Of a stretch of DNA of 61,209 bases, positions 19,607 to 59,971 are shown in pieces. Source of the stretch: Candidatus Zhuqueibacterota bacterium (GTDB taxonomy: Bacteria > BS750m-G25); assembly GCA_016783505.1 (NCBI GenBank), contig JADHWK010000010.1, forward strand, positions 1-61,209, given 5' to 3'. A program made the translations under genes and the position numbers. Below the pieces are notes generated by a model, which was given only the letters and a program-made list of their open reading frames with translations, did not search any database and was not told the origin of the DNA. Positions within the stretch are counted from its first letter, which is position 1. Every line of letters begins with the position of its first letter.

Positions 19607-19607
19607 A

Positions 19608-21102: not shown

Positions 21103-21130
21103 GATTGTTTGGTGAATTTACCTCTTCTTA

Positions 21131-21928: not shown

Positions 21929-21937
21929 TACTGTACG

Positions 21938-22627: not shown

Positions 22628-23385
22628 CAAAAGTTATCATTTTGGCGGCTGGTGAAGGTACCCGTCTTCATCCCTATACTTTGGATTGCCCTAAATGTTT
22701 GGTGAAAGTAGGCGGTAAAAGCTTGCTGGATTATCAACTCGCTGTTTTGAAAAGTCAAGGCATTGAACACATTGTTCTCATTAAAGGATATCTTTCTGAT
22801 ACATTGCATAGACCCGGCGTAATGACTTATTGCAACGAAAGGTACGCTGACACAAATATGGTCTGGACACTCTTTTGTGCTGAAGAGGAAATGACAGGCA
22901 ATGTGATCGTATCCTATGGCGATATTGCCTATTCAAAAGAAGTTCTAATTGAATTGATGAAATCTTCACAAAATATCTCTGTTGTTGTCGATAGGGGGTG
23001 GAAAACATATTGGGAGACTCGATTTGATAATCCATTGGATGATGCCGAAACGTTGAAAATTGGACATGACGGAAGGATTGTAGAAATTGGTCAAACCCCC
23101 AACAGTTTAGACGAAATTGAAGGGCAGTACATAGGTTTAATGAAATTTTCTGAAAAAGGTTTGTCTTCGCTTAAAGAGTTATTCAAGAAGTCGAAATCCG
23201 CTGGAATGTTAGGCACAAAAGGACCAGAAAAAGCGTATATGACAGATTTGCTGCAGGCAGCTATAGATAAAGGATACGATGTCTGGCCCGTTTTTATTGA
23301 GGGAGATTGGGTGGAAGTCGATACAGTCAATGATTTGAATTTGGAAATTACAAGGCAACGCTTGGAAAAAATATCCCGGATGTAA
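22624..23385 (+). CDS. LicC-like nucleotidyltransferase (Cj1416-like phosphoglutamine cytidylyltransferase candidate)
   Basis: IILAAGEGTRL, PKCL, TNMVWTL, SYGDI, DDAETL, GQYIGLMKFS, WVEVDT. Confidence 0.85.
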   Translation: MTKVIILAAGEGTRLHPYTLDCPKCLVKVGGKSLLDYQLAVLKSQGIEHIVLIKGYLSDTLHRPGVMTYCNERYADTNMVWTLFCAEEEMTGNVIVSYGDIAYSKEVLIELMKSSQNISVVVDRGWKTYWETRFDNPLDDAETLKIGHDGRIVEIGQTPNSLDEIEGQYIGLMKFSEKGLSSLKELFKKSKSAGMLGTKGPEKAYMTDLLQAAIDKGYDVWPVFIEGDWVEVDTVNDLNLEITRQRLEKISRM

Positions 23386-23527
23386 GTATAGGGCGAAAAG
23401 CCAGCCGATAATGAATAACTGGATTTTTTTGTAGATCAGAATTGTCCGATTAGGTTTTTGCATAATTCAAGAGCAATTGTGTAAATTTTTAAATCGAAAA
23501 AATGAAATTGGATTAAATGTGGGAAAT

Positions 23528-24721
23528 ATGAAAATTGACAGTATTCCGGTTGTATTTTTATTAGGTGTGGGAAGGTGTGGGGGTGATTTAACAAGGGGAA
23601 TTCTGGATTGGCATGATCAAGTGCTTATTATTCCTATTTCAAACAAGTTTTACCCTACATGGAAAAGTTATAAATGTGATTATATTGATGATCCTGACAA
23701 AATAGCGGATATTTTCTTAAACAATTCGAAGTTATCTTGGTTCAAAGAAAATAAGTTTATTCATAGCTATAGCCAGTTTGAATATGATTTTTCTGATGTT
23801 AATTGGAAGATATTTAATACCTCATTTCACGAATATTTGCATAAGCACAAATTATGTGCACGTAATGTATATTATGGTATTTTTTATGCTTATGCATGTG
23901 CCTGTAATAAAAGAATTGAGAAGGTTCGTGTAATCATTGCAGATGCCTTTTATGATAATTATATGTCAGAAATATTGAATGATTTTTCCGATGCGAGATT
24001 CATACATATCGTAAGGGATCATAGGGCTAATATCTCCTCACTCAAATCTTTCTTCTTGACTATGTACGGAACCCTTGTCTATCCTGGAAAAGGATTGAAG
24101 TTTGGCAGATCACTTTTTATACATATTATCAATGATTATATGGTTAAAGTAATGCGAATGCTCCATGATAACAAGAAAACAATGAGTGCTGATTATCTAA
24201 GAGTGATACGTTTTGAAGATATAAAACTAAATCCTAAATCAACGATAGAAGGCCTTGCTGGCTGGTTAGGTATTGATTTTAATGAGTGTTTAATGAAACT
24301 GACTAAAGTTGGAAAATTGGTACATGGAAATAGCAGTTTTTATGACCAGCCTGTTGAAGGATTCACCATTGAACCTGTATACAGATGGAAGAAACATTTG
24401 CGTTGTTACGAAATTAGAATGATTGAGTTCATTTTTGGTCAGAGCATGCTTAATCTCGACTATAAACCTGTTTATAGTCGGAATCCGGTCTCTAAATTAA
24501 TCGGATTTATCTGTTGTTTTATGCCATGGAAAGGCGAAATATTTTATATGGGGTATATGAAAAAGGCTCATGCACTCTCAAAATTTAAGCGTTTTTTAAG
24601 ATGTTATGTGATACCTTTTTATTATTTCCCTAGAAACATTTTGATGTTTTTCATTAGCAGAGCATTTTTTTTAAAGCTTTTCATCAAAGGTTATTTAAAA
24701 GTGGTTCCTCATGAGAAGTAG
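23528..24721 (+). CDS. Sulfotransferase-fold protein
   Basis: FLLGVGRCGG (5'-PSB-like loop), FIHIVRDHRANISS (3'-PB-like), IRFEDIKLNP, RWKKHL. Confidence 0.72.
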   Translation: MKIDSIPVVFLLGVGRCGGDLTRGILDWHDQVLIIPISNKFYPTWKSYKCDYIDDPDKIADIFLNNSKLSWFKENKFIHSYSQFEYDFSDVNWKIFNTSFHEYLHKHKLCARNVYYGIFYAYACACNKRIEKVRVIIADAFYDNYMSEILNDFSDARFIHIVRDHRANISSLKSFFLTMYGTLVYPGKGLKFGRSLFIHIINDYMVKVMRMLHDNKKTMSADYLRVIRFEDIKLNPKSTIEGLAGWLGIDFNECLMKLTKVGKLVHGNSSFYDQPVEGFTIEPVYRWKKHLRCYEIRMIEFIFGQSMLNLDYKPVYSRNPVSKLIGFICCFMPWKGEIFYMGYMKKAHALSKFKRFLRCYVIPFYYFPRNILMFFISRAFFLKLFIKGYLKVVPHEK

Positions 24722-29480: not shown

Positions 29481-31582
29481 TGGAACGTGGCAATATGATT
29501 CACGTATGGGTTGAACGATTAACTTCTTTCGGAATTATTAAGCTATATTGTGATCTAAGGAAGTACGATGATATTATCATCTTTTATCATAGGCTCTCAA
29601 GAGTTGCTGGTTTGTTTGCTGTCTTACTTGAAAACGGAAGTGTTAGCTCCAGAAGAATCGTTTTTAGAAAGATAGATTATGAATATTTTGCAAAGGACGC
29701 CCATGGGAGGGCGTTAATATATAAAGTAGAGCAGGGAGCTGCGATTCTTGCAGAACGGTTTTTTGGTGAATATTTGGCTCAGATGGAATGGTTGCCTGAT
29801 GGATATGACGAGTACAAAGATGAGTGGAAACGGATAGTTAAGTCATCACTCACAATGGTAGCTCGAGAGTCCTTGAAGTATTTGTTTATTATTGCAAATA
29901 TGTATGACACACATCAGATTGACAGATCAGGTATAAAGCAGATCATCATATATTTAAACCAGTCTGTTGTATCCCGGTTTATGGAACGCTTCTTCCAAAT
30001 ACCAATCAATATCCCATCTTCAATTCGGACTATTCCTAATTATAAGTATAATTTGATGTTTTACCCTATTCCTGGAAAACTCATCCAATTATTCTTTCAG
30101 ATTTTCATTGGATGCATGAAAAATGGAAAAAACCTTCATTATATATCAGAACAGGCCGTGAAAAATGGCGTCTTTATTGAAGAGTATCATCGTAGCATAT
30201 TCAGCCGTTATCCACTGGCAGGGCATTTATTCTGGTTTTCAGAAAGCAATTTGCCGCCTGAAAGGGTAATATTGTATTTTGATCGACCGGATTCGCCTTG
30301 TGATACTAAAGCGAGGCAAGAGGTTGAGTCATACGGGTTTGGCTGGTTGGATATGGACAATCCATGGCGGCATGTTAGATCGCCAGTGAGAATTTTGTCG
30401 AGCTGCTTTTTCAATGTGAGAAAATCCTTTCTCAAAAGCCGGATGGAAATTAGTATATGGCTGTGGGTTTTCTTGTTTTATCACAGCCTGCTTCTGGAGT
30501 GTTTTCGCGAGATTTATCGGACATACAATGTAAAGATGATGCATCAGCATCAGGAGTGGTGGCCGAGTTCCCTGGTCAGGGCCCTTGCCATCCGGATGGA
30601 AGGTGGAAAATCTGTCTGGTTTTTTTGGTCAGTTACTCAATATCCGTTTGGCTATTTCAATTCAGGTTTTGCGGATCTCGTTCTTTCCTGGGGGCCGTTG
30701 AATGATGGATTCATTAACGCTCATGATTTTTCCTACAGATACCTGGTAAGAATCGGTCGAATTGCCGCTGACGGATTTGATGATGAAGTAAGGCGTGATG
30801 CCCGTGCCATTCGAAAGCGATTCTCCCCTGATACATCCTTTGTCATCACTATTTTTGACAGTTCGCACAGCAATGATCCTGGCTTTCATCAATCGACAGC
30901 CTCCATGTTGACGTTTTATGACAACTTGCTCTCGTCTGCTCAACAAAGAAGTCACTGGGGCATTTTGATTAAGTCCAAGGGAGACTTTTTTAACCGATTG
31001 CCCCTCTCACACAGATTCTACAGTGCTTTTGAGCAGCTTACCGCCCAGGGCAGATGCATATTGCTGGATGGCCAAAACCTGGTGTCTCGGGCCGCCTTTG
31101 CCGGTGATGTTGCTGTGTGCTATAACATTAACTCAGCCGGTGTGCTGGCCGCTCTGTGTAACAAACCGGTCCTTCACTGGGATATTTGCGGGGCATTGGA
31201 TCATCCCCTTTATCAGGCAGGCGGTGAGGGCGGGATTATTTTTAAGACCTACGACGAGGTCTTGAATGCGCTGCTGAGGATTGAAGAGGGCGATAGCGTT
31301 TGTGGAAACCACGATCAATGGCTGGGGCTTGTGGATGAATTTCGGGATGAGATGGGAAATCAGCGGGCCGCCGAACTGATCGACGGATATATGATGCGGC
31401 GCGACCAGGGGATGGATCAAAACACGGCCCTTAGAAAATCAGTGGAGGCGTTCTCACGAAGATGGGGCCAGGATAAGGTTTCAACAATGGACTGTGTTCA
31501 ACCGCATTTGGGAAATGATCTGTGGCTCAAAGTGATAGAGAAAGCATCACAATCCGTTGAACAACGCCTCAGTCACCGTTGA
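29477..31582 (+). CDS. Large hypothetical surface-carbohydrate biosynthesis protein (putative transferase)
   Basis: 701-aa ORF coupled to its neighbours; C-terminal GT-B-like features (SWG, IFDSS, LIKSK, SAG..AAL..KP). Confidence 0.6.
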   Translation: MMERGNMIHVWVERLTSFGIIKLYCDLRKYDDIIIFYHRLSRVAGLFAVLLENGSVSSRRIVFRKIDYEYFAKDAHGRALIYKVEQGAAILAERFFGEYLAQMEWLPDGYDEYKDEWKRIVKSSLTMVARESLKYLFIIANMYDTHQIDRSGIKQIIIYLNQSVVSRFMERFFQIPINIPSSIRTIPNYKYNLMFYPIPGKLIQLFFQIFIGCMKNGKNLHYISEQAVKNGVFIEEYHRSIFSRYPLAGHLFWFSESNLPPERVILYFDRPDSPCDTKARQEVESYGFGWLDMDNPWRHVRSPVRILSSCFFNVRKSFLKSRMEISIWLWVFLFYHSLLLECFREIYRTYNVKMMHQHQEWWPSSLVRALAIRMEGGKSVWFFWSVTQYPFGYFNSGFADLVLSWGPLNDGFINAHDFSYRYLVRIGRIAADGFDDEVRRDARAIRKRFSPDTSFVITIFDSSHSNDPGFHQSTASMLTFYDNLLSSAQQRSHWGILIKSKGDFFNRLPLSHRFYSAFEQLTAQGRCILLDGQNLVSRAAFAGDVAVCYNINSAGVLAALCNKPVLHWDICGALDHPLYQAGGEGGIIFKTYDEVLNALLRIEEGDSVCGNHDQWLGLVDEFRDEMGNQRAAELIDGYMMRRDQGMDQNTALRKSVEAFSRRWGQDKVSTMDCVQPHLGNDLWLKVIEKASQSVEQRLSHR

Positions 31583-31614
31583 CAGGTGATAAACCGGGAA
31601 ATCTTGGATCGGGT

Positions 31615-33894
31615 ATGAACATAGATAAGGACATCAAAAAATATATTGTTTTTTCGGAAGATTCCCTGCTGCATGGCCTGGAAAAGATCAGCAAGAACAA
31701 AAGGCAGATTGTTTTCGGTGTCAGTGAAGCAGGGGTAATGGAAGGGGTGCTGTCAGACGGGGATTTTCGCAGGTGGGTGGTAGATCAAAAGGATTTCGAT
31801 ATCCAAATCTCTATCTCACGCATACTGAAAAAGGATTTTGTCTATTGCAGGGAGACGGATTCTCCCGAGACAATGGAGGCCCACTTTTTTCAAGGTATAG
31901 CCTATATCCCGATCCTGGATGATCAGAATCGGCTGATAGCGGTGGCCACCAGAGAAGATCCGAAAATATGTGTTGGGGACTGGACCATCAGTGATGAAAG
32001 CCCATGTTTTGTTATTGCTGAAATTGGAAATAACTATAACGGCGGTTTTGAGAAAGCAAAAGACCTGGTTGATGCGGCCCTTTGGGCCGGGGCCTCGTGC
32101 GCCAAATTCCAGATGAGAAGTATGGAAAGCCTGTACCGGCAGGCAGGGTTTGAAACAAATCACAGAGAGGATTTAGGGACCGAGTATGTGCTTGACCTGC
32201 TGAACAGGTTTCAATTGAGCGACGACGATATGTTTCGCATCTTTGACTATTGCAGGGAAAAGGGGATTCTGCCGCTGTGTACGCCATACGACATGGAAAG
32301 CCTGAAAAAGCTTGAAGGCTATGGCATGGAGGCCTTCAAGCTTGCATCTGCCGATCTGACCAACCATGAAATGATAGAGACCATGGCTCAGACCCGAAAC
32401 CCCCTTTTCTGCTCTGTGGGTATGTCAACGGATGAGGAGATTGTGCTGGCGGTGGATCTTCTTAAAAAGCATGGGGCCCAATATGTCCTGATGCAGTGCA
32501 ATTCCACCTACCCGCCGCCCTTTAAAGACATCAACCTCAACTATATGCGCACACTGAAACGATATGGCCATTGCCCGGTGGGCTACTCAGGGCATGAGCG
32601 CGGAATAAGTGTAGCGATTGCAGCGGTGGCAATGGGCGCCAAAGTTTTGGAAAAGCATCTAACCCTGGATAAAGGCATGGAAGGTAATGACCATAAGATC
32701 AGTTTGCTGCCTGAAGAATTCAAGGCCATGGTCCAGGGTATTCGCGAAGTCGAACAGGCGTTTGGAGAGGAAAAAACCCGTCGTATTTCCCAGGGAGAGC
32801 TGATTGTTCGGGAGGGCCTGGCGAAAAGCCTTGTTGCCTCTATGGAAATTAGGAGGGGCGATGTCATAACCGAGGAGGGAATCAGCATTCGCTCCCCAGG
32901 CAAAGGACTTCCTCCGTATCGAAAAAAGGAGTTAATCGGGAAAACCGCCAAGCGGGATTTCAAAGAAGGCGATTTCTTTCACTTGTCGGACCTCCAAATG
33001 GACACTGTCAAGCCGAGGGATTACAAGTTCGAAAGAGAATGGGGGATCCCAGTTCGCTTCCATGATTTCAAAGCCATATATGAGAAGTCAAACATGAAAC
33101 TGGTGGAGTTTCATCTCAGTTATAAGGATCTGGAATTGTCGCTTGACGAGTATCTTACCGAAATTTATCCTATCAACTTCATAGTGCATGCGCCTGAGTT
33201 GTTTGCGCATGATCATATATTGGATTTGTGCACTAGGGATGAGGATTACCGGCGCAGATCAATTGATGAACTTCAAAAGGTCATCAGGAAGACGCTGGAA
33301 GTGAAGCGCTATTTCCCAAAAACAGAGAAGCCTTTGATTGTCGTCAATGCCGGCGGTTTTACCATGAACCATCACATATCGCCTTCGGAAAGAAAGCAGC
33401 TTTATGAATTTTTTGTTTATAGCCGCCATGAACTGGATATGAACGGCGTTGAAATTATCCCTCAGACCATGCCACCTTTTCCCTGGCATTTCGGTGGACA
33501 AAGATATCACAATCTTTTTGTTGATCCCCATGAAATAGCTGAAATCTGTAGAGAAAATGAAATGAAAATATGTCTCGATATTTCCCATTCAAAATTAGCA
33601 TGTAATTTTTATAAATGGTCATTAAGGGAATTTATTGAGATCGTTGCCCCCTTTGTAGTTCATATTCATCTTGCTGACGCCGCAGGGCTTGACGGTGAAG
33701 GATTGCAGATTGAAGAGGGAGAGCTAAACTTTAGAAACCTGATGGATGATCTTAACAGATGGATCCCGGATGCCTCATTCATACCGGAAATTTGGCAGGG
33801 GCATAAGGACAGAGGTGCGGGATTTTGGAAGGCTTTAGATCGATTAGAGAAGTATGAACCCGATGAACCCGTCTTAAAGCGAAATATGGTATAA
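31615..33894 (+). CDS. Multidomain NeuB-family synthase: CBS pair + NeuB + SAF + xylose-isomerase-like TIM barrel
   Basis: GVLSDGDFRR (CBS); IAEIGNN, AKFQMR, GYSGHERG, EKHLTLD (NeuB); SPGKGL (SAF); EFHLS, HAPE, CLDISHS, HLADA, PEIWQGH (TIM barrel). Confidence 0.88.
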   Translation: MNIDKDIKKYIVFSEDSLLHGLEKISKNKRQIVFGVSEAGVMEGVLSDGDFRRWVVDQKDFDIQISISRILKKDFVYCRETDSPETMEAHFFQGIAYIPILDDQNRLIAVATREDPKICVGDWTISDESPCFVIAEIGNNYNGGFEKAKDLVDAALWAGASCAKFQMRSMESLYRQAGFETNHREDLGTEYVLDLLNRFQLSDDDMFRIFDYCREKGILPLCTPYDMESLKKLEGYGMEAFKLASADLTNHEMIETMAQTRNPLFCSVGMSTDEEIVLAVDLLKKHGAQYVLMQCNSTYPPPFKDINLNYMRTLKRYGHCPVGYSGHERGISVAIAAVAMGAKVLEKHLTLDKGMEGNDHKISLLPEEFKAMVQGIREVEQAFGEEKTRRISQGELIVREGLAKSLVASMEIRRGDVITEEGISIRSPGKGLPPYRKKELIGKTAKRDFKEGDFFHLSDLQMDTVKPRDYKFEREWGIPVRFHDFKAIYEKSNMKLVEFHLSYKDLELSLDEYLTEIYPINFIVHAPELFAHDHILDLCTRDEDYRRRSIDELQKVIRKTLEVKRYFPKTEKPLIVVNAGGFTMNHHISPSERKQLYEFFVYSRHELDMNGVEIIPQTMPPFPWHFGGQRYHNLFVDPHEIAEICRENEMKICLDISHSKLACNFYKWSLREFIEIVAPFVVHIHLADAAGLDGEGLQIEEGELNFRNLMDDLNRWIPDASFIPEIWQGHKDRGAGFWKALDRLEKYEPDEPVLKRNMV

Positions 33895-49682: not shown

Positions 49683-50564
49683 TTGACAATTTTGCTTATG
49701 GACCATCGTGAGGTTTCGGGACCGGCAGCAGTGGCTAGAAAGACAGTGTCTGTGAGGATGTGGCGGAAGGCTATTGCAGTTCTATTTACAGGGTTTGGCG
49801 CTTTGTTGTTGGTGTTTTCATTACTCGGACTAAATACATATCTCGGGCGTTATGAGAGCAAAACTGTGATTGGGGAGAGATTTGACGCTGCGTTGGCACC
49901 TAAATTGAAGAGCGTAAATGAGTTATATGGTGAGGCTTTAATGCGGCAAGGTAATTGGCAGAATGCAACATCTGAAGAAAAAATGAGTGCCTTTTATGAT
50001 GTTGTGGTCGAACGCTTTACATACGGGAGTAAGGCAAAGTACAATCTTTTTAGTAATTGGATTATGTGGGTTCTGGGTTTATTCAATTCTGATGCAGCTT
50101 ATATTTCTGATCCCGACATACTTTTAAAATATGGCTTTTCGATTATGTGTCATCAGAGTTCGTGGGTTCTCGCTACTTTAGCCAAGAAAGAAAATCTTCC
50201 ATTTCGGCATGTTGAACTAAGTGGTCATGTGGTTATGGAGGCTTGGTGGGGAGATGCATGGCATCTATATGATCCGTCCTTTGAGGTTATCCCATTGAGA
50301 GAGGGTACGATTCTTAGTGGTCGTGATCTTGAGGATAAGCCCTATTTGGTCAAGTTATTTTATGGGAATAGAGGCGATTGTGTTGAACCGTTATTCGCTA
50401 CTAAATATGACAACAGCTTTGTAACAGACGGAATGTTTATTTGGAAAGCTGAGGTACTGTCATTAATCGAACGTGTTTCCAATTATGCCAAATGGGCTTT
50501 ACCTATTCTGATGATTATTGTTGGTATTTGTCTTTTTTTATTAGGGATTAAAAAAGGCGGATGA
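49683..50564 (+). CDS. Membrane-anchored transglutaminase-like (Cys-His-Asp) protein
   Basis: N- and C-terminal TM segments flank MCHQSS, GHVVMEAW, WHLYDP; start uncertain. Confidence 0.6.
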   Translation: MTILLMDHREVSGPAAVARKTVSVRMWRKAIAVLFTGFGALLLVFSLLGLNTYLGRYESKTVIGERFDAALAPKLKSVNELYGEALMRQGNWQNATSEEKMSAFYDVVVERFTYGSKAKYNLFSNWIMWVLGLFNSDAAYISDPDILLKYGFSIMCHQSSWVLATLAKKENLPFRHVELSGHVVMEAWWGDAWHLYDPSFEVIPLREGTILSGRDLEDKPYLVKLFYGNRGDCVEPLFATKYDNSFVTDGMFIWKAEVLSLIERVSNYAKWALPILMIIVGICLFLLGIKKGG

Positions 50565-50967
50565 TTCTGCCGCAATGCCATGTTTGGGATGCTTTTCGGA
50601 AAGCTGATAGAGAGCTGTAACAGAAATGGGTTAACGTTAAAGTATTGCCAACACTGGTGTTTCCTAAGGAGAACTTCAGGAAAAAGTAACATAAAACAGC
50701 AAACGAGAAAACGTTACAGCCATTTCCTTTAACAAACATTGACGAACGGGTGAAAATTGTTGTCAATTTGCCTGAGGCTGGATCGGTAAGTCATTGATCA
50801 TAGGCTGTATTGTCTGGTGCAAATTGTAAATTCGAGAGCTGACTGTGTTTTAATTTTTGGGCTGTGGAAAGCTCTTCAGGGAGGCCGGGTAATATTGTGA
50901 GCATTAGGGGTTTTTTTAGGATGGTGGTTGTGCATGGGCATTGAAAATGAGGTGGTGCTAATCAGAA

Positions 50968-52632
50968 ATGGGGATGAAAGAGAAATTGAGAATTGGAATA
51001 TTGATAGACTCTTTTGAGGTAAGTGCATGGAAATATGCAATGATTGAGAGGATAGTTAATTCAGACTATGCTAAAATTGAACTCATCGTTCTCAATTCTG
51101 GTAGCAATGTACCCGGATCAGTTTATAACAGACTAATAAGGAGCCGCAAGAATTTAATTTATTGTCTATATAAAAGAATTGATGAGACAGTTTTTAGATC
51201 TAGTCCAAACGCGTTTGCGAATAAAAATATTGGATTGTTACTGCCAGATGTTCCAACAGTGGAAGTCGCCCCGATTCAGAAAAAATATTTTGACTATTTT
51301 AGGACCGCAGACGTTAATACTATCAAAAGATATCATATTCATGTTTTAATTCGTCTGGGGTTCAGAATACTAAAGGGGGACATTTTTAGCTCTTCTGAAT
51401 ATGGAATTTGGTCGTATCATCATGGTGATAATACAATTAATAGAGGAGGACCTGCCGGTTTTTGGGAAGTCGTTAACAATCTGCCTGAGACTGGATCTAC
51501 CCTTCAGATTCTAAGTAAAGATTCGGATGATGGAAAAGTCATTTATAGATCCTGGGCAAGAACCTATCCATTGTCGCCTGCTAAGAACAGGAATAGATCT
51601 TACTGGAAATCTCTATCATTTGTGCCAAGAAAGCTTGAAGAACTGAGTCGCGTTGGAGAAGATAAGTTTCTTGAAAATTTGGATAGAAGCAACAAGGAGA
51701 TAAAGTTTTATACTCATAAGCTATATAAAGAACCGCATAACATAAACGCATTACAATTGGCTATCAAGCAGCTGTCTAAAATAGCTAAAAGAGGCTTCCA
51801 GAAGGCATTCCTACTAGATCAATGGTTTTTAATGTTTGATTTGGGCAATGACATTTCAACGGAATTTAGGGGATTCAAAAAAATATTTCCCCCTAAAGAC
51901 AGATTCTGGGCAGATCCGCATGTAATATTTTGGGATAGCAAATATTATGTTTTTATTGAGGAATTGATGTATAAGACGTTGAAAGGCCATATTGCTGTCA
52001 TTGAGATGGATCAGCGGGGTAACATAACGAAACCAGTCAAGATATTGGAAAAAGACTATCATCTTTCGTACCCATTTGTCTTTGAATGGGAAGGGAACAT
52101 TTACATGATTCCCGAGAGCAGTCAAAACAAAACTATTGAATTATACGCATGTGTGGAATTTCCTCATAAATGGGATCATAAGATGAATTTGATGGAGAAT
52201 GTTATTTCTGTTGATACCACGTTGCTCTACTATAATGAACGATGGTGGCTTTTCACAAATATTGTCGAAAATGAAGGGGCGGGATATGATGATGAATTGT
52301 TTCTGTTTTACTCTGATAACTTATTTACAACGCAGTGGAATGAGCATGAATCAAATCCTATTGTTTCGGATGTAAAAAGAGCAAGACCAGCAGGAAAACT
52401 TTTTATTAGAGATGGGAAAGTTTATAGACCCTCACAGGATGGCTCACAAATCTTCGGCCATGGCTTCAATTTAAATGAAATTGTGGTTCTAACGGAAACT
52501 GACTTTGTTGAAGAAACAATAGCTTCAGTGAAACCAAATTGGGATGAAAGGATAAAGGGCGTGCATACTTTTACATATGAGAAAGGATTAACCTTCATTG
52601 ATGGCTTTATGAGAAGGCAAAAGTTGTTTTAG
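50968..52632 (+). CDS. Formyltransferase-like domain fused to a GH43-like five-bladed beta-propeller
   Basis: GIWSYHHGD..RGGPAGFWE..DDGKVI in the N-half; FWADPH, HLSYPFVF, YMIPES, RPAG, RPSQD, HT in the C-half. Confidence 0.7.
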   Translation: MGMKEKLRIGILIDSFEVSAWKYAMIERIVNSDYAKIELIVLNSGSNVPGSVYNRLIRSRKNLIYCLYKRIDETVFRSSPNAFANKNIGLLLPDVPTVEVAPIQKKYFDYFRTADVNTIKRYHIHVLIRLGFRILKGDIFSSSEYGIWSYHHGDNTINRGGPAGFWEVVNNLPETGSTLQILSKDSDDGKVIYRSWARTYPLSPAKNRNRSYWKSLSFVPRKLEELSRVGEDKFLENLDRSNKEIKFYTHKLYKEPHNINALQLAIKQLSKIAKRGFQKAFLLDQWFLMFDLGNDISTEFRGFKKIFPPKDRFWADPHVIFWDSKYYVFIEELMYKTLKGHIAVIEMDQRGNITKPVKILEKDYHLSYPFVFEWEGNIYMIPESSQNKTIELYACVEFPHKWDHKMNLMENVISVDTTLLYYNERWWLFTNIVENEGAGYDDELFLFYSDNLFTTQWNEHESNPIVSDVKRARPAGKLFIRDGKVYRPSQDGSQIFGHGFNLNEIVVLTETDFVEETIASVKPNWDERIKGVHTFTYEKGLTFIDGFMRRQKLF

Positions 52633-52700
52633 AATGTAAGTCTTGCCTTGCTTGAACCGTGGAGCAGAGAACCCTTAAACGGGTGACCTAGTGAGGAATA

Positions 52701-54563
52701 ATGTCACAGTTAAATAGAAAAGTAATTGAATCGCTAATTAAGGAGAAAGAGTTCGAGCTCGCCTATATAAAGCTGAATGAATCTATAAAGCCTCATTCAA
52801 GTCTAAATAATTTTTTGTTTGCAGAAAAAATCTACAGGGTATTAGTTGAAGAATTAGCCTTTCGTAGATTTCGGATAGCTATATTACGAACAATTACAGT
52901 TGAGCCAATGCTCCCATTTATCAAGGTAATGTGCTATGCGAACAAGATAAACCCAGAGCTTTATTTAGGTGGATACAACATAATTGATCAAGGAATACTG
53001 GATCAAGGTAGCAAATTATATGCCTTTAAACCTGATGCTCTTATAATTTTTTGGCGAGCTGAGGAGGTGTGTCCAAAGCTAATGGACTCCTATCTAGAAT
53101 TATCCTCAAATGAAGTTGTGATGGTAAAGGAGAGCGTTGTTGCCAAAATAGATAAACTAATATCAGCTTTTAGAACAAACTCAGAGGGAAAAATAATTGT
53201 GCATAACTTCGAGCTACCTCAGTTCCCCGTTTTTGGAATAGTAGATAGTCAACATAAAAGGAGCCAGAAAGGATTATTTGAGGAACTAAATAATCTGCTA
53301 ATAGAAACAACCAATAAGTATGTGGACGTTTACGTATTAGATTATGAACATTTAGTCTCACGATATGGTAAACGAAACTGGTTTGATGAAAGACTGTGGT
53401 TTACAGCAAAAGCTCCACTCTCTATAGTCGCGATGCAGGCGTTAGCAAACGAATACACCAAATATTTTAAGGCAATGCTGGGTATGACAAAGAAATGCAT
53501 TGTTCTGGATTTAGACAATACTCTTTGGGGCGGGATATTGGGTGAAGAAGGGATTCAAGGTATTAAAATCGGGCAAGCCTCTCCAGGTAACGCCTTCACG
53601 GAATTTCAAAAAGAGCTTTTGAAACTATATCATAAGGGGTTTGTCTTAGCAATAAACAGTAAGAATGATGAAGAAGCTGTTATGGAGGTTTTTGATAAGC
53701 ATCCGGATATGGTCCTGAGGAAAAAGCATTTTGCATCTATGAAAATTAATTGGACTAATAAAGCCCAAAACATGAAGGATATAGCGGAAGAACTAAATAT
53801 TGGGCTAGATACTTTTGTTTTCCTTGATGATAGTCCGGTAGAAAGAGAGCTAATCAAACAACAACTTCCAGAGGTTCATTGTGTGGCACTTCCAAATAAT
53901 GCGCATTTATATCCGAAGATATTAAGAGAATTGCCAGATTTCGAGCGCTTAAGTTTTACTGAGGAGGATTTGAGAAGAGGTGAAATGTACAAGACGCAAA
54001 TTAAGAGGAAAAAACTTGAAAAGAGCAGTACATCTCTTGAAGACTTTTATTCCTCGTTGGAAATGGTAGCAATAGTTAGGGTAAATGACAGCTTTGAAGT
54101 ATCGCGGCTGGCGGATATGACCCAGAAGACAAATCAGTTCAATCTTACTACCAGGCGTTATTCCAAAAGTGATATTTCTCGTTTTATTACGTCCCGAAAT
54201 TATCAAGTATACTCTCTCCGGCTTATTGATAAGTTTGGAGATAATGGCGTAGTCGGATCAATAATAGTAAAACAAGACAATGATATATGGGAACTTTATG
54301 GCTTCTGGTTAAGCTGTAGGGTGATGGGCAGAACGGTTGAAACCGCATTTCTTTCCTATATTTGTGAAAAAGGGTTAAAAGACAATATTAAAAGCATACT
54401 GGGAAAATATGTCCCAAGTAAAAGGAATTCTCCTGTTAAAGACTTGTATAAAGAGCATGGATTTAGATTGGTAAAAAAAGATAAGGGAATCACAAGTTGG
54501 AAATTAGATAGAAAAAAGACCTCAATCAAATGTCCGCGATGGATTGCAATTCGTGAAGGATAA
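52701..54563 (+). CDS. FkbH-like HAD-IIIC glyceryl-transferase/phosphatase
   Basis: KKCIVLDLDNTLWGG, SKND, INW..K, FLDDSPVER, KTNQFNLTT, DKFGDNG, LSCRVMGR. Confidence 0.93.
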   Translation: MSQLNRKVIESLIKEKEFELAYIKLNESIKPHSSLNNFLFAEKIYRVLVEELAFRRFRIAILRTITVEPMLPFIKVMCYANKINPELYLGGYNIIDQGILDQGSKLYAFKPDALIIFWRAEEVCPKLMDSYLELSSNEVVMVKESVVAKIDKLISAFRTNSEGKIIVHNFELPQFPVFGIVDSQHKRSQKGLFEELNNLLIETTNKYVDVYVLDYEHLVSRYGKRNWFDERLWFTAKAPLSIVAMQALANEYTKYFKAMLGMTKKCIVLDLDNTLWGGILGEEGIQGIKIGQASPGNAFTEFQKELLKLYHKGFVLAINSKNDEEAVMEVFDKHPDMVLRKKHFASMKINWTNKAQNMKDIAEELNIGLDTFVFLDDSPVERELIKQQLPEVHCVALPNNAHLYPKILRELPDFERLSFTEEDLRRGEMYKTQIKRKKLEKSSTSLEDFYSSLEMVAIVRVNDSFEVSRLADMTQKTNQFNLTTRRYSKSDISRFITSRNYQVYSLRLIDKFGDNGVVGSIIVKQDNDIWELYGFWLSCRVMGRTVETAFLSYICEKGLKDNIKSILGKYVPSKRNSPVKDLYKEHGFRLVKKDKGITSWKLDRKKTSIKCPRWIAIREG

Positions 54564-54576
54564 ATGGAGATTTGGT

Positions 54577-54807
54577 ATGGAACAGAAACTAAAACGGATT
54601 ATGTCAACTTTATTCGATGTTAAGGAAGATGAAATAAGGGATGAATCGTCAATCGAAAACATTGATGAATGGGATTCATTGAAGCATATTAATCTAATTT
54701 TGGCAATTGAAGAGGAATTTGGAATATCCACAGATGAAGACCAAATGGCTGAAATGATAAGCTTTGCTAAAATTATGCATGTCCTAACAGATAAAGGCGT
54801 CCGTTAA
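54577..54807 (+). CDS. Acyl carrier protein
   Basis: Small acidic protein with WDSLKH (phosphopantetheinyl Ser) and EEEFGI. Confidence 0.9.
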   Translation: MEQKLKRIMSTLFDVKEDEIRDESSIENIDEWDSLKHINLILAIEEEFGISTDEDQMAEMISFAKIMHVLTDKGVR

Positions 54808-54809
54808 AA

Positions 54810-56522
54810 ATGAAAAATAGTAATAAAATGCTATTTGACGATTTTGTGGGGGAAACCAAGGAGAGGTTTGATTTCAGTGTAAACAAAGAGACCCTAGAAT
54901 CATTCGCAATGATGACAGGAGACTATAGCTCACTTCACATGGATGAAGCATTTTCCAGAAGAATGAAATATAGAGATCGCATTGTACATGGAATGCTGCC
55001 CCTTTGTTATATTTCGGCTCTAAGGATATTTCGTGTGAGGAATTATGTTGGTTCAATCGTTAGCATTGATGCGGAATTCAGCCAGCCGATTTATTTGGAA
55101 AGCAACCTTAGAATAACGGCGGAGATTGTTAAGAAAAGGTCATCTAACAGAACGTTAAGCTTGAAAATAACGATTATGAATATTAGGTCAAAAATAGTTG
55201 CGACAAGAGCTTCAGTAGCTGTGAAATTTGAAAAAGGTGGGAATAAATTAATTGATTATCCCTCTGCGTTTGTGGAAAGCGATATAGGTTTATTAACGAA
55301 GTCTATTAGGGAAAACAAATACACTTTTGAGGAAGTTAGAGAAGGCCTTACCAAATCCGTTGAATTTGAAATTTCAGATGAACATTTCCAACACTTTCTA
55401 GAAATGCTTCAAAAGGGGCTGAAAAAAAAGTGTGAAAGGCCAGAGATAAGGACTAGTTTGCAGAATGTCATAAAGAGTATTCTTTGTGCAAGTTTAGTCT
55501 CTACATTTATAGGAATGCATATCCCAGGTAGAAATTCAACGTTAATAGGTTTTAGGATAGAATATTTGAAGCAAATTCCTCAAATGAAAAAGCTTCTTTT
55601 AAGGGGAGAGGTTAAGCGACGATCTGTAGGTACTAAGGGAATTAGCCTTGGATTATCAATATCGGATAATCTAAGTAAGACTGAATATGCTATCGGAAGT
55701 GCTACGGTAATAGTGAATCCATGCCCAAAAGAAATGCCTTCAATCATAGAAATGAAACAGTTTACTGATTATAAGCTAACAGATAAAGTTGTGTTGGTTA
55801 CGGGTGCTAGTCGAGGCATTGGCGAGACAACTGCTCTTCTATTTGCGTTGATGGGTGCCAAAATAATTGTTAACTACTATCGAGGTAAGGAGGATGCTGA
55901 AAAGGTCGTTAAGCAGATTATGCAAAACGGCGGAGATGCGATAGCGCTGAGAGCCGATGTCGCAAATTCTGATGAAGTGAATGAAATGGTTAAAGCAGCA
56001 TACAGGAAGTATGGAACTATCGATGTTTTAGTGAATAATGCCGTTAAAGATTTCTTGCCATATGAATTTGCAAGATTAAGATGGGAGGATGTACAGAAGG
56101 AGATAGATGTAACTGTCAAAGGGGCATTTAACACTTGCAAGGCTGTGATACCTCTGATGATTAAAGGTGGTGGTGGAAGCATAATCAATGTTTCATCAAT
56201 GGTTACTGATAATCCCCAACGTAAACAATTAAAATACGTAATTGCAAAAAGTGCTGTGGTTGGTTTAACGCGAGGCTTGGCAGTTGAGTACGCGGAGAAT
56301 AACATACGGGTTAACATGGTAGTACCGAATTTTGTTGAAACCGACCTCGTTTCGAATATTCCCTCCGCGTTTCAAAAAAAGGCGGCAAACCAAACGCCTA
56401 TGAAGAGAAACGCTAGTCCTGTTGATGTCGCCCAGGCAATTGTATTCGCTGCTTCTTCCTTCTCATCATATACCACCGGGCAAAGAATAATGGTAACTGG
56501 CGGCGGCCTTCCTTTGCTGTAG
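54810..56522 (+). CDS. MaoC (hot-dog) dehydratase domains fused to a FabG-like ketoreductase
   Basis: FAMMTGDYSSLHMD..IVHGML (MaoC); second degenerate hot-dog (STFIGMHIPG); VLVTGASRGIG, LVNNA, YVIAK (SDR). Confidence 0.85.
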   Translation: MKNSNKMLFDDFVGETKERFDFSVNKETLESFAMMTGDYSSLHMDEAFSRRMKYRDRIVHGMLPLCYISALRIFRVRNYVGSIVSIDAEFSQPIYLESNLRITAEIVKKRSSNRTLSLKITIMNIRSKIVATRASVAVKFEKGGNKLIDYPSAFVESDIGLLTKSIRENKYTFEEVREGLTKSVEFEISDEHFQHFLEMLQKGLKKKCERPEIRTSLQNVIKSILCASLVSTFIGMHIPGRNSTLIGFRIEYLKQIPQMKKLLLRGEVKRRSVGTKGISLGLSISDNLSKTEYAIGSATVIVNPCPKEMPSIIEMKQFTDYKLTDKVVLVTGASRGIGETTALLFALMGAKIIVNYYRGKEDAEKVVKQIMQNGGDAIALRADVANSDEVNEMVKAAYRKYGTIDVLVNNAVKDFLPYEFARLRWEDVQKEIDVTVKGAFNTCKAVIPLMIKGGGGSIINVSSMVTDNPQRKQLKYVIAKSAVVGLTRGLAVEYAENNIRVNMVVPNFVETDLVSNIPSAFQKKAANQTPMKRNASPVDVAQAIVFAASSFSSYTTGQRIMVTGGGLPLL

Positions 56523-56538
56523 AATTATAAGATTTATC

Positions 56539-57576
56539 ATGTGTTTCAAACTTTTGGAGTCAAATCAAGGTGCTATAAGTGAATTTATACGCTTTAACAA
56601 GAAGGTCTATTCAAACAGAAAAGACATCAAAAAGCGCTTCTGTTGGTATATCCTTGAAAATCCAGTTTTAGAGGATAAGGAGAAACCAAACGTATTGCTC
56701 TGTTTCGGGAAGGGGAGTAAGATAGTGGGGCAATACTTACTTAATCCGTTTGAATGGTCTTTTCGAGGAAAAAAGCATAAGGGTTATTGGGGTATTGATT
56801 ACTTTGTATTAGAGGGTGAAAGTGGTGTTTGCGGTGCAGTACTGGCAAGGACAGCAATAAGAAACTATAGGCCCTATTTTACTATTGGTCCTTCGGAAAT
56901 ATCCAAAATGATTTGTTTAGCCTTAGGAACAAGAACAGTTGGAAGCCTAAAAAAATTCATCTGGCCAAGAAATCCGGCTATCCCGCTGCTGATAGGAATA
57001 AGCCTTATCGTTAAAAGGAGGCCGTTTTTGATAAGGCAGGAAAGCAATGATGATAAATTTCCAGTAAGGTTATCCTGTAACGGTGTAAAATTTAGGCGCA
57101 TTGAGGAATTGGATGGTTGGAAAGAATATCATTGGAAAGAAACCATCGAACTTTCCCGATCCCTGCAATTTTTGAGGTGGCGATTCTTTAATAAATATAG
57201 AAAATATTATTTTTATTTAACAAGTAACCTGGCAAAGCCTTCATATTTTGTAGTAAGAAGGTGTTTTTGGCGTGGCTTAATAGTTTTAGTAATCGTTGAT
57301 TATAGAACAGCATATAGAGATTATGATAGTTGGCAAGCAATTCTGCATGCTGCAAAGGTATTGGCAAGACTGAATAGGTGTGACGGAGTAATTACTGGGA
57401 GCTCACATGAATTTTTTGACAAAGGACTGAAAAGGAAGTCTTTTATCAAGGTTGGGAGAGAAAGCTTAATACTAACGAATTGTGAAATATGCTTTTCTGA
57501 TGAGGTTATTGAAAAGAGGGAGATTATATATGCAACAATGGCTGACTGTGACACAGATTTATGTTTTGGTGAGTAA
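56539..57576 (+). CDS. Hypothetical protein, possibly tandem GNAT-fold acyltransferase
   Basis: W...NP, IVGQY, WGIDYFV, RS..FLRWRF, terminal ADCDTD pattern seen in GNAT-like proteins of glycan loci. Confidence 0.5.
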   Translation: MCFKLLESNQGAISEFIRFNKKVYSNRKDIKKRFCWYILENPVLEDKEKPNVLLCFGKGSKIVGQYLLNPFEWSFRGKKHKGYWGIDYFVLEGESGVCGAVLARTAIRNYRPYFTIGPSEISKMICLALGTRTVGSLKKFIWPRNPAIPLLIGISLIVKRRPFLIRQESNDDKFPVRLSCNGVKFRRIEELDGWKEYHWKETIELSRSLQFLRWRFFNKYRKYYFYLTSNLAKPSYFVVRRCFWRGLIVLVIVDYRTAYRDYDSWQAILHAAKVLARLNRCDGVITGSSHEFFDKGLKRKSFIKVGRESLILTNCEICFSDEVIEKREIIYATMADCDTDLCFGE

Positions 57577-57967
57577 TTGTATAAAGAAGTGATGTACGGT
57601 TCAAAAATGGTGATAGGTTGAAAATGTTCGTTGATTTTATGTGATGGATTACTGAAATGGAGGAAATATGTGTTTGGAGTGTTAAAAGCAGTTGCTATGA
57701 TACCTTGGAAAATCTCAATATTTCTGCCAAGATCAAGACGGATGAGGATTTTAGGCAGAGAAACCATTGGATATTTAGCGGAGTAAAACGGGAATGCAAC
57801 GTAGAGATTGTCCGAAGGAGTGGATTCCTAAAAGTCCCGTCTGGTTACAATTTAGACTCGATACTTGTTTTTGGGTATTAAATATAGGGACCGGCCCAAT
57901 CGTCGCTGTTTGGGTCGTCTTGATTGGTGATATGATTATTATCTCTTTTGGAGATGGTGTGTAATCA

Positions 57968-59971
57968 ATGTGCGGAATTGCTGGTTTTATAGATTACAAG
58001 CGCAGATGGGGCAGGCAAGAGCTTGAAAAGATAGCAAGTGAGATGGCTTTGGCTCTGCGCCATCGTGGGCCTGATGACAGTGGAACCTGGGTGGACGAAA
58101 AAGCCGGTGTTGCTTTCGGTCATTGCCGGCTTTCCATAATCGACCTCTCTTCGGCAGGTCATCAACCAATGGTTTCTGAGAGTGGGCGTTATGTGATCAT
58201 ATATAATGGCGAGGTCTATAATTTTCAAGCCCTTAAGGAGTTGCTAAAGTCCATGGGACAGAGATTCCGAGGACATTCGGATACAGAAGTTGTCTTGGCC
58301 GCTATCGAACAATGGGGAGTAAGTGGGGCCGTAAATAAGTTCCAGGGAATGTTTGCTTTTGTTCTGTGGGATCGATTTGAGAGGCGTCTCCATTTGGTCC
58401 GCGATCGTATGGGGATAAAGCCTATTTACTACGGGTGGATGGATGGCTTATTTCTTTTTGGATCTGAATTGAAGGCATTTCGTACCAATCCTTGTTGGAA
58501 TAGCGAGATCGACAGAGATGTATTGGCGCTCTTTATGCGACACAGCTATATCCCTTCTCCGTATTCCATCTACAGGAACGTTTACAAACTTTTTCCTGGA
58601 TGTATCCTGAGTGTGGATGCCAAAGGGGGACCGAGGCACAACGATTTTAGCCCTTTACCTGCCGGTGAAGGTGCCGGCATTCACAAGCTGCAACCACGGC
58701 CGTATTGGTCGATTCGTAAAGTTGCTGAGGAAGGGCGAAAGAATCCATTCATGGGGAATGAAGAAGAAGGAATATGTCAGCTTCAGAAAATACTCGGCAG
58801 TGCGGTTACCGACCGTATGATTGCCGATGTACCCTTAGGTGCCTTTTTGTCGGGTGGCATAGACTCTTCCGTCGTGGTAGCGCTTATGCAAAGCAGCACA
58901 ATCAAACCCGTTAAAACATTTACCATAGGATTTCACGATGCGAACTATAATGAGGCGAAATACGCTAAAGATGTGGCTTATTATCTGGGAACGGATCATA
59001 CTGAATTGTATATTTCGCCTGAAGAGGCAGTTGGTGTAATACCAAGACTTCCCATGCTTTATGATGAGCCATTCGCTGACTCCTCGCAGATCCCAACCCT
59101 CATGGTCTACGAATTGGCAAAAGAAAATGTTAAAGTCGGCCTTTCAGGAGACGGGGGCGATGAGAACTTCGCCGGTTACAATCAATACTTTCTGGCGACC
59201 GCTATCTGGAATAAAACACGCTTGTTATCTCCATCCATGAGGAAACTGATAGCTAAGGGTATGGCAAGCGTTCCTCTGAGGTCATGGGAGAAGTTTTTTC
59301 GCTACACAAACAAGTTTGTGGGCCGCGAACTCAGGAATCGTATGTCTGGTGACGCTATCCACAAGGCTGTCGATATGATTGTGGCAAAAACACCGGACAT
59401 ACTTTTCAGAACCCTTACTTCTCACTGGAAACAAGTGGAGGGTCTTGTTCTTGACGCAGAGCACGTGCCGACGGAACGGTTTGATTCATATGCTACGGTT
59501 AAAAAGTATAACTTTGCGAGGCGTATGATGATCACTGACTTGGTCACTTATCTTCCTGACGACATCCTCGTGAAAGTGGATCGAGCGAGCATGGGGGTTA
59601 GTCTGGAGGCTCGTGTGCCTATTCTAGACCACAGAGTAGTGGAATTTGTTGCACGCTTGCCTTTGTCGATGCTAATCAAGGGAAATATCAGGAAGTATCT
59701 ATTACGAAGGTTACTCTATAAATACGTCCCCATGAATCTGATTGAGCGACCAAAAAGAGGGTTTGCTTTGCCGCTTGGAGAATGGTTGAGAGGATCTTTA
59801 AAAGATTGGGCTGAATCTCTGTTGAACGAGTCGCGTTTGCGCAGGGAGGGCTACCTTAGCCCAACAGTCGTCAATGATAAATGGAGAGAGCACCTTTCAG
59901 GTGAAAGAGACTGGAAATATCATCTATGGAACGTATTGATGTTTGAAGCATGGTTGGACGGGGAAAGATAA
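57968..59971 (+). CDS. asnB: Asparagine synthase (glutamine-hydrolysing)-type amidotransferase
   Basis: MCGIAG, HRGPD, RLSIIDLS, YNGEVYN, LSGGIDSS, SGDGGDE, KVDRASM..SLEARVP. Confidence 0.93.
   Translation: MCGIAGFIDYKRRWGRQELEKIASEMALALRHRGPDDSGTWVDEKAGVAFGHCRLSIIDLSSAGHQPMVSESGRYVIIYNGEVYNFQALKELLKSMGQRFRGHSDTEVVLAAIEQWGVSGAVNKFQGMFAFVLWDRFERRLHLVRDRMGIKPIYYGWMDGLFLFGSELKAFRTNPCWNSEIDRDVLALFMRHSYIPSPYSIYRNVYKLFPGCILSVDAKGGPRHNDFSPLPAGEGAGIHKLQPRPYWSIRKVAEEGRKNPFMGNEEEGICQLQKILGSAVTDRMIADVPLGAFLSGGIDSSVVVALMQSSTIKPVKTFTIGFHDANYNEAKYAKDVAYYLGTDHTELYISPEEAVGVIPRLPMLYDEPFADSSQIPTLMVYELAKENVKVGLSGDGGDENFAGYNQYFLATAIWNKTRLLSPSMRKLIAKGMASVPLRSWEKFFRYTNKFVGRELRNRMSGDAIHKAVDMIVAKTPDILFRTLTSHWKQVEGLVLDAEHVPTERFDSYATVKKYNFARRMMITDLVTYLPDDILVKVDRASMGVSLEARVPILDHRVVEFVARLPLSMLIKGNIRKYLLRRLLYKYVPMNLIERPKRGFALPLGEWLRGSLKDWAESLLNESRLRREGYLSPTVVNDKWREHLSGERDWKYHLWNVLMFEAWLDGER

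Follow-up and report, generated by a model that had tools for sequence, protein, structure and literature searches.

Why should a bacterial locus devoted to glycan synthesis carry an FkbH-type loader and a dedicated carrier protein, the opening steps of certain antibiotic pathways, with no polyketide synthase (PKS) to receive their product? The question is raised by a 61,209-nucleotide stretch of DNA from Candidatus Zhuqueibacterota bacterium (contig JADHWK010000010.1 of assembly GCA_016783505.1), hereafter the window, which is one whole contig of a 2.5-Mb metagenome-assembled genome (MAG) that is 59.9% complete. Every long open reading frame (ORF) of the window lies on the + strand, and the Pfam content of the 52 ORFs that we scanned is that of a very large glycan locus. 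Positions 52701–57576 hold four + strand genes, which encode the FkbH loader, an acyl carrier protein (ACP), a fusion of a MaoC-type dehydratase to a short-chain reductase (SDR), and a putative tandem-GNAT acyltransferase, and which are separated by gaps of 13, 2, and 16 bases, respectively (Table 1). An earlier note on this DNA had pointed to four tightly linked genes here, and all four were recovered. The motif and family matches of these genes are far beyond chance.

We propose that the four genes form a free-standing cassette in which a carrier protein donates an acyl group that decorates a sugar of the glycan made by the locus, a reading to which we assign a probability of about one half. 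The cassette probably builds a three-carbon hydroxy acid, most likely lactate, from an intermediate of glycolysis on the ACP and then passes it to an amino sugar. Judging by its family membership, the FkbH protein would take the glyceryl unit of 1,3-bisphosphoglycerate, remove the phosphate, and pass the glyceryl group through C539 to S34 of the ACP. The MaoC double hotdog would then remove water across C2–C3 of glyceryl-ACP to give enol-pyruvoyl-ACP and its tautomer pyruvoyl-ACP, whose 2-oxo group the fused FabG-like reductase would reduce to yield lactyl-ACP; for both steps we draw on gene linkage and polyketide precedent. Finally, as gene linkage and a complex model suggest, the tandem GNAT would bind the ACP against the cofactor loop in its N-terminal domain and hand the C3 acyl group on to the free amine of a sugar. 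Comparison with other loci supports this reading, for which the observations are the genes, their motifs, their folds, and their recurrent linkage. What would be new is a free-standing lactyl- or glyceryl-ACP module, situated in a glycan locus, that pairs a dehydratase of the MaoC type with a new kind of receiver, a tandem GNAT; fkbH-domain genes as such have already been annotated in glycosylation loci.

The loader and its carrier protein

The product of the first gene is predicted from its sequence to load glycerate from 1,3-bisphosphoglycerate onto a carrier protein. It matches TIGR01686 over residues 263–590 (E 1.4e-94; 316.9 bits against a curated cut-off of 146.65) as well as FkbH_N (E 3.9e-21), and its residues 50–421 match PDB entry 3SLR, the uncharacterized BF1531 of Bacteroides fragilis (E 2.3e-54). 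The HAD phosphatase motif D270-L-D-N-T (residues 270–274) and the L-S-C539-R-V of the C-terminal domain (residues 537–541), both of which had been claimed in the earlier note, are indeed present, and DxDxx and SCR[VI] are kept in all 21 of the FkbH proteins that we aligned (that of the window and 20 others). Work on OzmB reportedly established a cysteine of the FkbH C-terminal domain as the acyl-enzyme residue, a role that we presume for C539.

The ACP gene follows after 13 bases, and its start is likely to be the ATG at 54577 rather than the overlapping TTG at 54544, because GGAGA stands 7 bases before the former. Its product matches PP-binding (E 4.2e-5), and the serine that had been placed in a DSL motif proved to be S34, within WDSL. 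The residues W32-D33-S34 do not vary among 13 carrier proteins encoded next to FkbH or next to relatives of the tandem-GNAT protein. No ketosynthase, KAS III, adenylating enzyme, or PKS domain was found in the 52 ORFs scanned against Pfam, so the reported absence of a ketosynthase held for the 61-kb window, and the same scan revealed no E2-like acyltransferase, KAS III, or FkbG/I/K-type gene beside FkbH–ACP in the window.

A dehydratase–reductase fusion with a double hotdog

The third gene had been described as a MaoC–ketoreductase fusion. Both parts were borne out, and the AlphaFold model of the protein (pLDDT 89.4) added a second hotdog, such that the protein comprises two hotdogs (1–142 and 170–302) followed by the SDR, which is to say a double hotdog plus a ketoreductase. 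Hotdog 1 contains the sequence GDYSSLH; the model of hotdog 2 has a central helix (residues 215–237) wrapped by strands (243–302). In the model, hotdog 2 probably plays a non-catalytic part, forming an intramolecular double hotdog with hotdog 1. The SDR has TGASRGIG at residue 331, along with Y476 and K480. A Foldseek search with the whole model listed FabG-type reductases alone, and the best PDB matches were FabG enzymes, at 39% identity and a TM score of 0.93.

Relatives of the fusion were sought with residues 1–320, as whole-protein queries (against 40 other genomes and against plasmids) were swamped by ordinary SDR matches. HMMER with these residues returned 1294 proteins at E ≤ 0.001, of which 131 were at E ≤ 1e-10, and dozens of relatives of 534–577 amino acids aligned over residues 1–317, the whole double hotdog. 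D38, H43, Y476, and K480 were invariant in 32 long-form relatives. When ten relatives were looked up, a name was attached to one cluster member, '3-oxoacyl-ACP reductase'.

A tandem-GNAT protein as candidate acyl receiver

The fourth gene encodes a 345-amino-acid protein that the earlier note had called GNAT-like, with fold prediction proposed as the check and the lack of a GNAT fold named as a ground for refutation. That ground falls away, for the AlphaFold model (pLDDT 85.6, pTM 0.86) has a tandem GNAT fold, with an N-terminal GNAT domain at residues ~1–143 and a second GNAT-like domain at ~177–325. Foldseek with this model returned N-myristoyltransferases at E down to 2.6e-10 (probability 1.00) and the tandem GNAT 2ozg at E 4.9e-9, and the N-myristoyltransferases and Eis-like tandem GNATs (4my0, 2ozg) superimposed with Z of 19.6–21.1 over 270–305 residues. 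At the level of sequence the assignment comes from the family: the protein itself gave only an Acetyltransf_9 match below significance (E 0.19), and in its family Acetyltransf_9 matched 11 of 13 members (best E 2.8e-5) and Acetyltransf_1 matched 8 of 13 (best E 2.8e-8). A profile of the family matched no PDB sequence at E up to 10, structural relatives being found by fold search alone. The two-GNAT fold is shared with N-myristoyltransferase and Eis-like proteins (4qbj, 4my0, 2ozg) over ~270–305 of the 345 residues at a sequence identity of only 10–13%. The known members of that group use acyl-CoA, whereas linkage and modelling point to an acyl-ACP donor for the protein of the window.

We predict, from linkage and from a structural model, that the 345-amino-acid protein receives its acyl group from the carrier protein. 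The model is of a complex of the GNAT with the ACP, built with our own alignments for both chains in three runs alongside three controls. The complex scored 0.74 (0.74, 0.77, and 0.74 in the three runs), with the best of the three controls at 0.01; the runs shared at least 98% of their contacts, and the partner had a pLDDT of at least 89. Of 157 solved complexes, 116 attain the pass mark used, as do 2 of 215 mismatched pairs, and these counts are only a rough guide here given that the alignments were our own. In the modelled complex, S34 of the ACP contacts GNAT residues 98–100, 103, and 125. These residues belong to the β4–α3 loop, which precedes helix 3 in the N-terminal GNAT domain and which in GNATs holds the pantetheine-pyrophosphate of the donor. 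The complex model supports a predicted binding of the ACP by the GNAT. The sequence of the cofactor loop followed no clear pattern when relatives with a nearby carrier-protein gene were compared with relatives that had none.

Recurrence of the cassette in other loci

Among 400 other genomes sampled across the domain, 28 have a match to TIGR01686, which makes 30 places when the copy in the window is counted; kinship between the genomes compared and the source genome is only at the domain level. From unrelated genomes we fetched 20 FkbH loci (given L numbers below, as are all loci outside the window) with ORFs of ~570–760 amino acids, leaving out nine places (four in ORFs of 1052–4116 amino acids, presumably PKSs, four with ORFs of 360–400 amino acids, and one with an internal stop). 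A carrier protein adjoins FkbH in 18 of the 20 loci, 16 of which were recognized by tblastn, one more by Pfam, and one more by its WDSL motif. Neighbours were scanned in 17 loci, after L036 was dropped as too short and L041 and L043 as matching the FkbH core only. Most of the 17 are glycan loci, and many of the cassettes are surrounded by glycosyltransferases (GT1, GT2, GT4), flippases, DegT genes, and deacetylases. Within 4.5 kb of FkbH, nine of the 17 have a MaoC gene and seven an SDR gene, and a MaoC–SDR fusion stands directly against FkbH–ACP in five (L024, L031, L038, L039, L040), a recurrence that fits enzymes acting on the product of FkbH. The locus most like that of the window, L031, holds FkbH, ACP, a long MaoC–SDR fusion, a NodB deacetylase, a 357-amino-acid protein, and AsnB, and hhalign relates the 357-amino-acid protein distantly to the GNAT family (probability 67%, E 5.2e-5, 240 columns). 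The likely transferases of the 17 loci were Hexapep proteins (six), MBOAT proteins (three), Antibiotic_NAT proteins (two), and GNAT-type proteins (three).

We also analysed 15 loci containing relatives of the tandem-GNAT protein itself (34–55% identity; one from genome contigs and 14 from metagenome contigs), using tblastn with the window proteins and inspection of small ORFs, with a Pfam scan of the neighbours in 12; the three outside that scan (L014–L016) contain GNAT copies with identical match statistics and have the ORF layout of L011. The scan of genome contigs with the GNAT alignment yielded a single locus, in an archaeal MAG (L001), which has no FkbH. FkbH and a carrier protein lie beside the GNAT relative in four of the 15 loci (L012, L013, L020, L023), and the FkbH of L020 is 54% identical to that of the window. 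In two others (L018, L019), an ACP and then an AMP-binding (adenylating) enzyme lie directly downstream of the GNAT, and L021 has an AMP-binding gene two genes upstream. This placement of the family beside two different kinds of carrier-protein loader is as expected of an acyl-ACP-dependent transferase.

The FkbH loci also displayed features of their own. The FkbH proteins of L038, L039, and L040, which directly follow a short MaoC–SDR fusion, and that of L030 have DCD instead of DLD in the phosphatase motif; those of the window and of L024, which also has a short fusion, have DLD. Directly after FkbH–ACP, L035 has a protein that joins a MaoC domain to an Antibiotic_NAT (AAC(3)-fold) acyltransferase (5663–8380), and a DUF4910/DUF2172 protein adjoins this fusion. 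Cj1295 of Campylobacter jejuni, considered below, may belong to the DUF4910/DUF2172 family. In L025, L033, and L042, an MBOAT membrane O-acyltransferase comes after FkbH–ACP, whether MaoC and SDR are present or not, a layout that recalls the Dlt system and by analogy suggests O-acylation outside the cell. The plasmid FkbH matches that we inspected proved to be tetronate/PKS cassettes (KAS III, FkbH, ACP, E2-like acyltransferase) and were rejected as glycan loci.

Relation to known systems

The closest chemical precedent lies in polyketide starter units. In bryostatin synthesis, BryA provides a loading module with the order dehydratase (DH), ketoreductase (KR), FkbH, ACP. For FR901464, the conversion of glyceryl-ACP to lactyl-ACP that the earlier note had invoked is described as characterised: passages of PMC4765723, citing He et al. 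2014, report bifunctional DH–KR proteins that turn glyceryl-S-ACP into lactyl-S-ACP for both FR901464 and lankacidin. As far as those passages describe the FR901464/lankacidin lactyl starter, the window is predicted to encode the same four activities (FkbH loader, carrier protein, dehydratase, and ketoreductase), likewise with dehydratase and reductase in one protein. It differs from a polyketide lactyl module in containing no ketosynthase or PKS and in its predicted receiver, a tandem GNAT in a glycan locus. The cassette of the window would work like a lactyl module but is not a PKS loading module. With tetronate and methoxymalonyl-ACP pathways (for which plasmid loci L044 and L045 served as examples) it has a common start, FkbH and a dedicated ACP; the KAS III and E2-like acyltransferase, or the FkbG/I/K proteins, with which those pathways continue are absent from the window, which has MaoC–SDR and GNAT instead.

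On the side of glycans, the only published genetic link to FkbH that we found is in C. jejuni. The gene cj1302 is described, in an excerpt of PMC7099621, as an fkbH-domain gene of the flagellin glycosylation locus, and strain 11168 makes N-(2,3-di-O-methylglyceroyl)-pseudaminic acid according to passages of PMC3068675. In those same passages, Cj1295, which is said to have an aminopeptidase-like domain, is the sole gene tested by mutation, and the authors proposed that Cj1295 removes the acetyl group, which is then replaced (PMC3068675). As these partial accounts present it, the cj1295–cj1302 region of NCTC 11168 therefore shares with the window an fkbH-domain gene in a nonulosonic-acid glycosylation locus, and its product carries a glycerate-derived N-acyl group on the sugar; since both oxygens are retained in that product, nothing there implies a dehydration. 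A 2026 preprint treats these C. jejuni groups descriptively in the portion that we drew on (10.64898/2026.04.20.719630). For the N-glyceroyl pseudaminic acid of Tannerella forsythia, a 2017 paper described the genetic basis as 'a major challenge' (PMC5378307), and a passage from 2018 states that the candidate gene 'remains elusive' (PMC6120980). We found no experimental paper joining FkbH or glyceryl-ACP to glycan acylation in the full-text literature searched, a scope that most subscription journals fall outside.

A further parallel is the synthesis of Nod factors. There, N-acylation of the sugar involves the deacetylase NodB, the N-acyltransferase NodA, and the dedicated carrier protein NodF. 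The shared logic is that a dedicated carrier protein gives an unusual acyl group to a sugar amine, and a NodB-type gene (PF01522, CE4) lies directly beside the GNAT in seven of the 12 scanned loci of relatives. The differences are that the window contains no deacetylase, that its transferase is a tandem GNAT rather than NodA, and that its acyl group would be a C3 hydroxy acid from FkbH rather than a fatty acid.

The acceptor

The likely acceptor is an amino sugar, possibly a precursor of a nonulosonic acid, that one or other of the two DegT aminotransferases in the locus would produce. The pairing of GNAT and deacetylase in most of the relatives suggests replacement of an N-acetyl group in those loci. 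In the window, we found no CE4 deacetylase (PF01522; matches elsewhere in the same genome were on contigs C81 and C63 only), no match to a Hexapep acyltransferase or a further GNAT among the 52 scanned ORFs, and no hidden deacetylase or acyltransferase upon a permissive Pfam re-scan of the unassigned ORFs. Since the window lacks these enzymes but has two DegT aminotransferases, the GNAT may act on the newly formed amine of a nucleotide-linked amino sugar, which we take to be the step at which PseH or PglD would act.

Points against the proposed pathway and alternative readings

Several observations weigh against the proposed route from glyceryl-ACP to an N-lactoyl sugar. On the side of the chemistry, what FabG-type SDRs normally reduce is a 3-oxo rather than a 2-oxo group. 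PKS dehydratase domains are expected in a Pfam family other than MaoC, and the MaoC-type double hotdog and FabG-like reductase of the window are likened to the DH and KR domains of PKSs by predicted activity. No phosphopantetheinyl transferase was found in the genome at its 59.9% completeness, and the high score of the GNAT–ACP complex may have arisen through likeness to solved carrier-protein complexes. A search of the same genome for flagellin was likewise negative, and at this completeness neither absence is informative. The loci of GNAT relatives add further points. The deacetylase that so often adjoins the GNAT is missing from the window, and the MaoC–SDR fusion was found in none of the 12 scanned loci; three of them (L013, L020, L023) have, beside FkbH, a Glyoxalase_4 (VOC) protein of ~130 amino acids in its stead. 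In five of the 12 (L001, L010, L011, L017, L022), no carrier-protein gene was seen within the sequenced stretch, so the GNAT family may also use acyl-CoA. We read the absence of the fusion from these loci to mean that it is an optional tailoring step and that the GNAT family takes an acyl group without prior processing by the fusion; the Glyoxalase_4 protein may represent an alternative tailoring step on glyceryl-ACP, such as epimerisation.

The alternative that survives best accepts FkbH, ACP, and GNAT in the roles given above and differs in the group transferred, which would be glyceroyl or another C3 unit (pyruvoyl or epimerised glyceroyl), with the fusion protein either inverting C2, whether through loss and re-addition of water or through oxidation followed by reduction, or making an oxo-acyl group. 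The only sugar decorations that we found tied to an fkbH gene in the literature, those of C. jejuni, are of the glyceroyl type. Moreover, GNAT relatives occur with FkbH–ACP and without MaoC–SDR, MaoC without SDR stands at FkbH in L030, L033, and L035, and the Glyoxalase_4 Pfam family found beside FkbH in L013, L020, and L023 includes methylmalonyl-CoA epimerase, which makes an epimerase step on a thioester plausible. However, the fusion of MaoC to SDR in five of 17 loci and the invariance of its catalytic residues argue for two coupled chemical steps, and dehydration followed by reduction is the sequence reported for the DH–KR proteins of FR901464 and lankacidin. We consider this alternative unlikely.

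A second alternative leaves the carrier-protein chemistry in place and removes the GNAT from it. The tandem GNAT would then be an ordinary acyl-CoA-dependent N-acetyltransferase doing the job of PseH or PglD, and the ACP-bound acyl group would be moved by the GINT1_N protein upstream of the cassette, by an enzyme encoded elsewhere, or by an O-acyltransferase. The window has no other recognisable N-acetyltransferase, even though the products of its aminotransferases need one, and this alternative would also account for the five GNAT loci with no visible carrier-protein gene and for the pairing of FkbH–ACP elsewhere with Hexapep, MBOAT, or Antibiotic_NAT proteins. Set against these points, the GNAT gene begins just 16 bases past the fusion gene, ACP loaders of two kinds accompany the family (FkbH in four loci, an adenylating enzyme plus ACP in two or three), and in the complex model, whose controls scored no more than 0.01, the serine of the ACP sits at the cofactor loop. 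We regard this alternative as distinctly improbable.

Finally, that the cassette makes a small molecule or lipid apart from the glycan (tetronate-like or polyketide-like) and sits in a glycan locus by chance seems very unlikely: FkbH proteins of the same length class do occur in tetronate/PKS cassettes, on plasmids of Methylosinus trichosporium OB3b and Pseudalkalibacillus hwajinpoensis with KAS III, FkbH, ACP, and an E2-like acyltransferase, but the window contains no KAS III, ketosynthase, E2-like acyltransferase, or PKS, its genes all lie on one strand amid glycosyltransferases and sugar-nucleotide enzymes, and sibling cassettes lie amid GT1, GT2, and GT4 genes, flippases, DegT genes, and deacetylases.

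Neighbouring genes and other features of the locus

Two genes flanking the cassette are possibly associated with it. Upstream lies the gene for a GINT1_N-domain protein, whose nearest Atlas clusters consist of bacterial GINT1_N proteins of ~560 amino acids, with Formyl_trans_N on 12% of the members in one cluster; a second GINT1_N protein lies near FkbH in L026 (4440–5348, − strand). Downstream lies the gene for an AsnB-type glutamine amidotransferase, a homologue of which (49% identity) is present in L031. Between the GNAT and AsnB genes is a 391-base gap (57577–57967), the sole long gap of the cassette, which holds an ORF of 74 amino acids (57657–57881) without a Pfam match and in which no terminator-like site was found. 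A promoter and terminator scan of 50400–58200 gave nothing usable.

Table 1. Locations of the cassette genes, their parts, and associated features (window positions unless a locus is named).
Feature	Location	Strand	Evidence
FkbH-type loader (FkbH_N, HAD-IIIC phosphatase, C-terminal acyl-enzyme domain), 620 aa	52701..54563	+	TIGR01686, FkbH_N
Dedicated ACP, 76 aa; phosphopantetheine serine S34, codon 54676–54678	54577..54807	+	PP-binding
Fusion protein, 570 aa	54810–56522	+	MaoC_dehydratas residues 20–115, SDR residues 326–565
Fusion hotdog 1, residues 1–142, MaoC-type dehydratase with D38, H43	54810..55235	+	MaoC_dehydratas (PF01575) E 6.5e-14, 52 bits against cut-off 27
Fusion hotdog 2, residues 170–302	55317..55715	+	AlphaFold model
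Fusion FabG-like short-chain reductase, residues 320–570	55767..56522	+	adh_short_C2 E 1.6e-56
Putative tandem-GNAT acyltransferase, 345 aa	56539..57576	+	Fold model, Pfam matches of the family
GINT1_N-domain protein, 554 aa	50968..52632	+	GINT1_N E 8.5e-43; 68 bases upstream of FkbH
AsnB-type glutamine amidotransferase, 667 aa	57968..59971	+	Asn_synthase E 1.6e-112, GATase_6/7; N-terminus M-C-G-I
Two NeuB-family synthases; several cytidylyltransferases; two DegT aminotransferases	window	+	Pfam
Two formyltransferase-fold proteins; sulfotransferase; APS kinase; B12 radical-SAM enzyme; methyltransferases	window	+	Pfam
Glycosyltransferases GT2, GT4, GT8	window	+	Pfam
Glyoxalase_4 proteins, ~130–155 aa, beside FkbH–ACP without MaoC–SDR	L013 11984–12382	−	
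	L020 1755–2156	+	
	L023 1121–1513	−	
	L037 3639–4106	−	

Elsewhere in the window, one of the NeuB-family synthases (NeuB plus SAF; 771 amino acids, 31579–33894, + strand) is fused to a C-terminal xylose-isomerase-like TIM barrel (AP_endonuc_2); the second, at 6420–7490, is an ordinary NeuB. A run of + strand genes at 16674–24721 suggests a sulfated glycan and encodes a 797-amino-acid PPDK_N and PEP-utilizers protein, the APS kinase (19094–19606), the sulfotransferase (23477–24721), a formyltransferase-fold protein, a methyltransferase, a class-I glutamine amidotransferase, and a nucleotidyltransferase. At the start of the contig (198–5759, + strand), genes for an HpcH/HpaI-type aldolase, a cytidylyltransferase, a D-2-hydroxyacid dehydrogenase, a HAD hydrolase, a DegT aminotransferase, and an iron alcohol dehydrogenase form a set that may make a further unusual activated acid or sugar.

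Implications

Unusual N-acyl groups on the surface sugars of bacteria shape immune recognition and phage binding, and the genes behind them are mostly unknown. The route considered here is known from antibiotic synthesis, and we found none described for bacterial surface sugars in the literature searched. If the proposed reading is true, the cassette would offer a concrete four-enzyme route to C3 acyl groups that is open to testing in vitro, MaoC–SDR genes would be predicted to mark lactoyl rather than glyceroyl products, and the tandem-GNAT enzymes would gain a branch that uses acyl-ACP. Because FkbH occurs in 28 of 400 genomes and mostly in glycan loci among the 17 examined, the route may be widespread. 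More tentatively, and at odds that we put somewhat lower than for the cassette of the window itself, FkbH plus a dedicated ACP, with MaoC/SDR as an option, could be a general and so far undescribed route by which the surface sugars of bacteria receive C3 hydroxy-acyl groups (lactoyl, glyceroyl, and their methylated forms), with the 345-amino-acid protein as founder of a new family of acyl-ACP-dependent tandem-GNAT sugar N-acyltransferases. In that event, such cassettes would account for decorations whose genes have been missing, such as the N-glyceroyl group of Tannerella pseudaminic acid.

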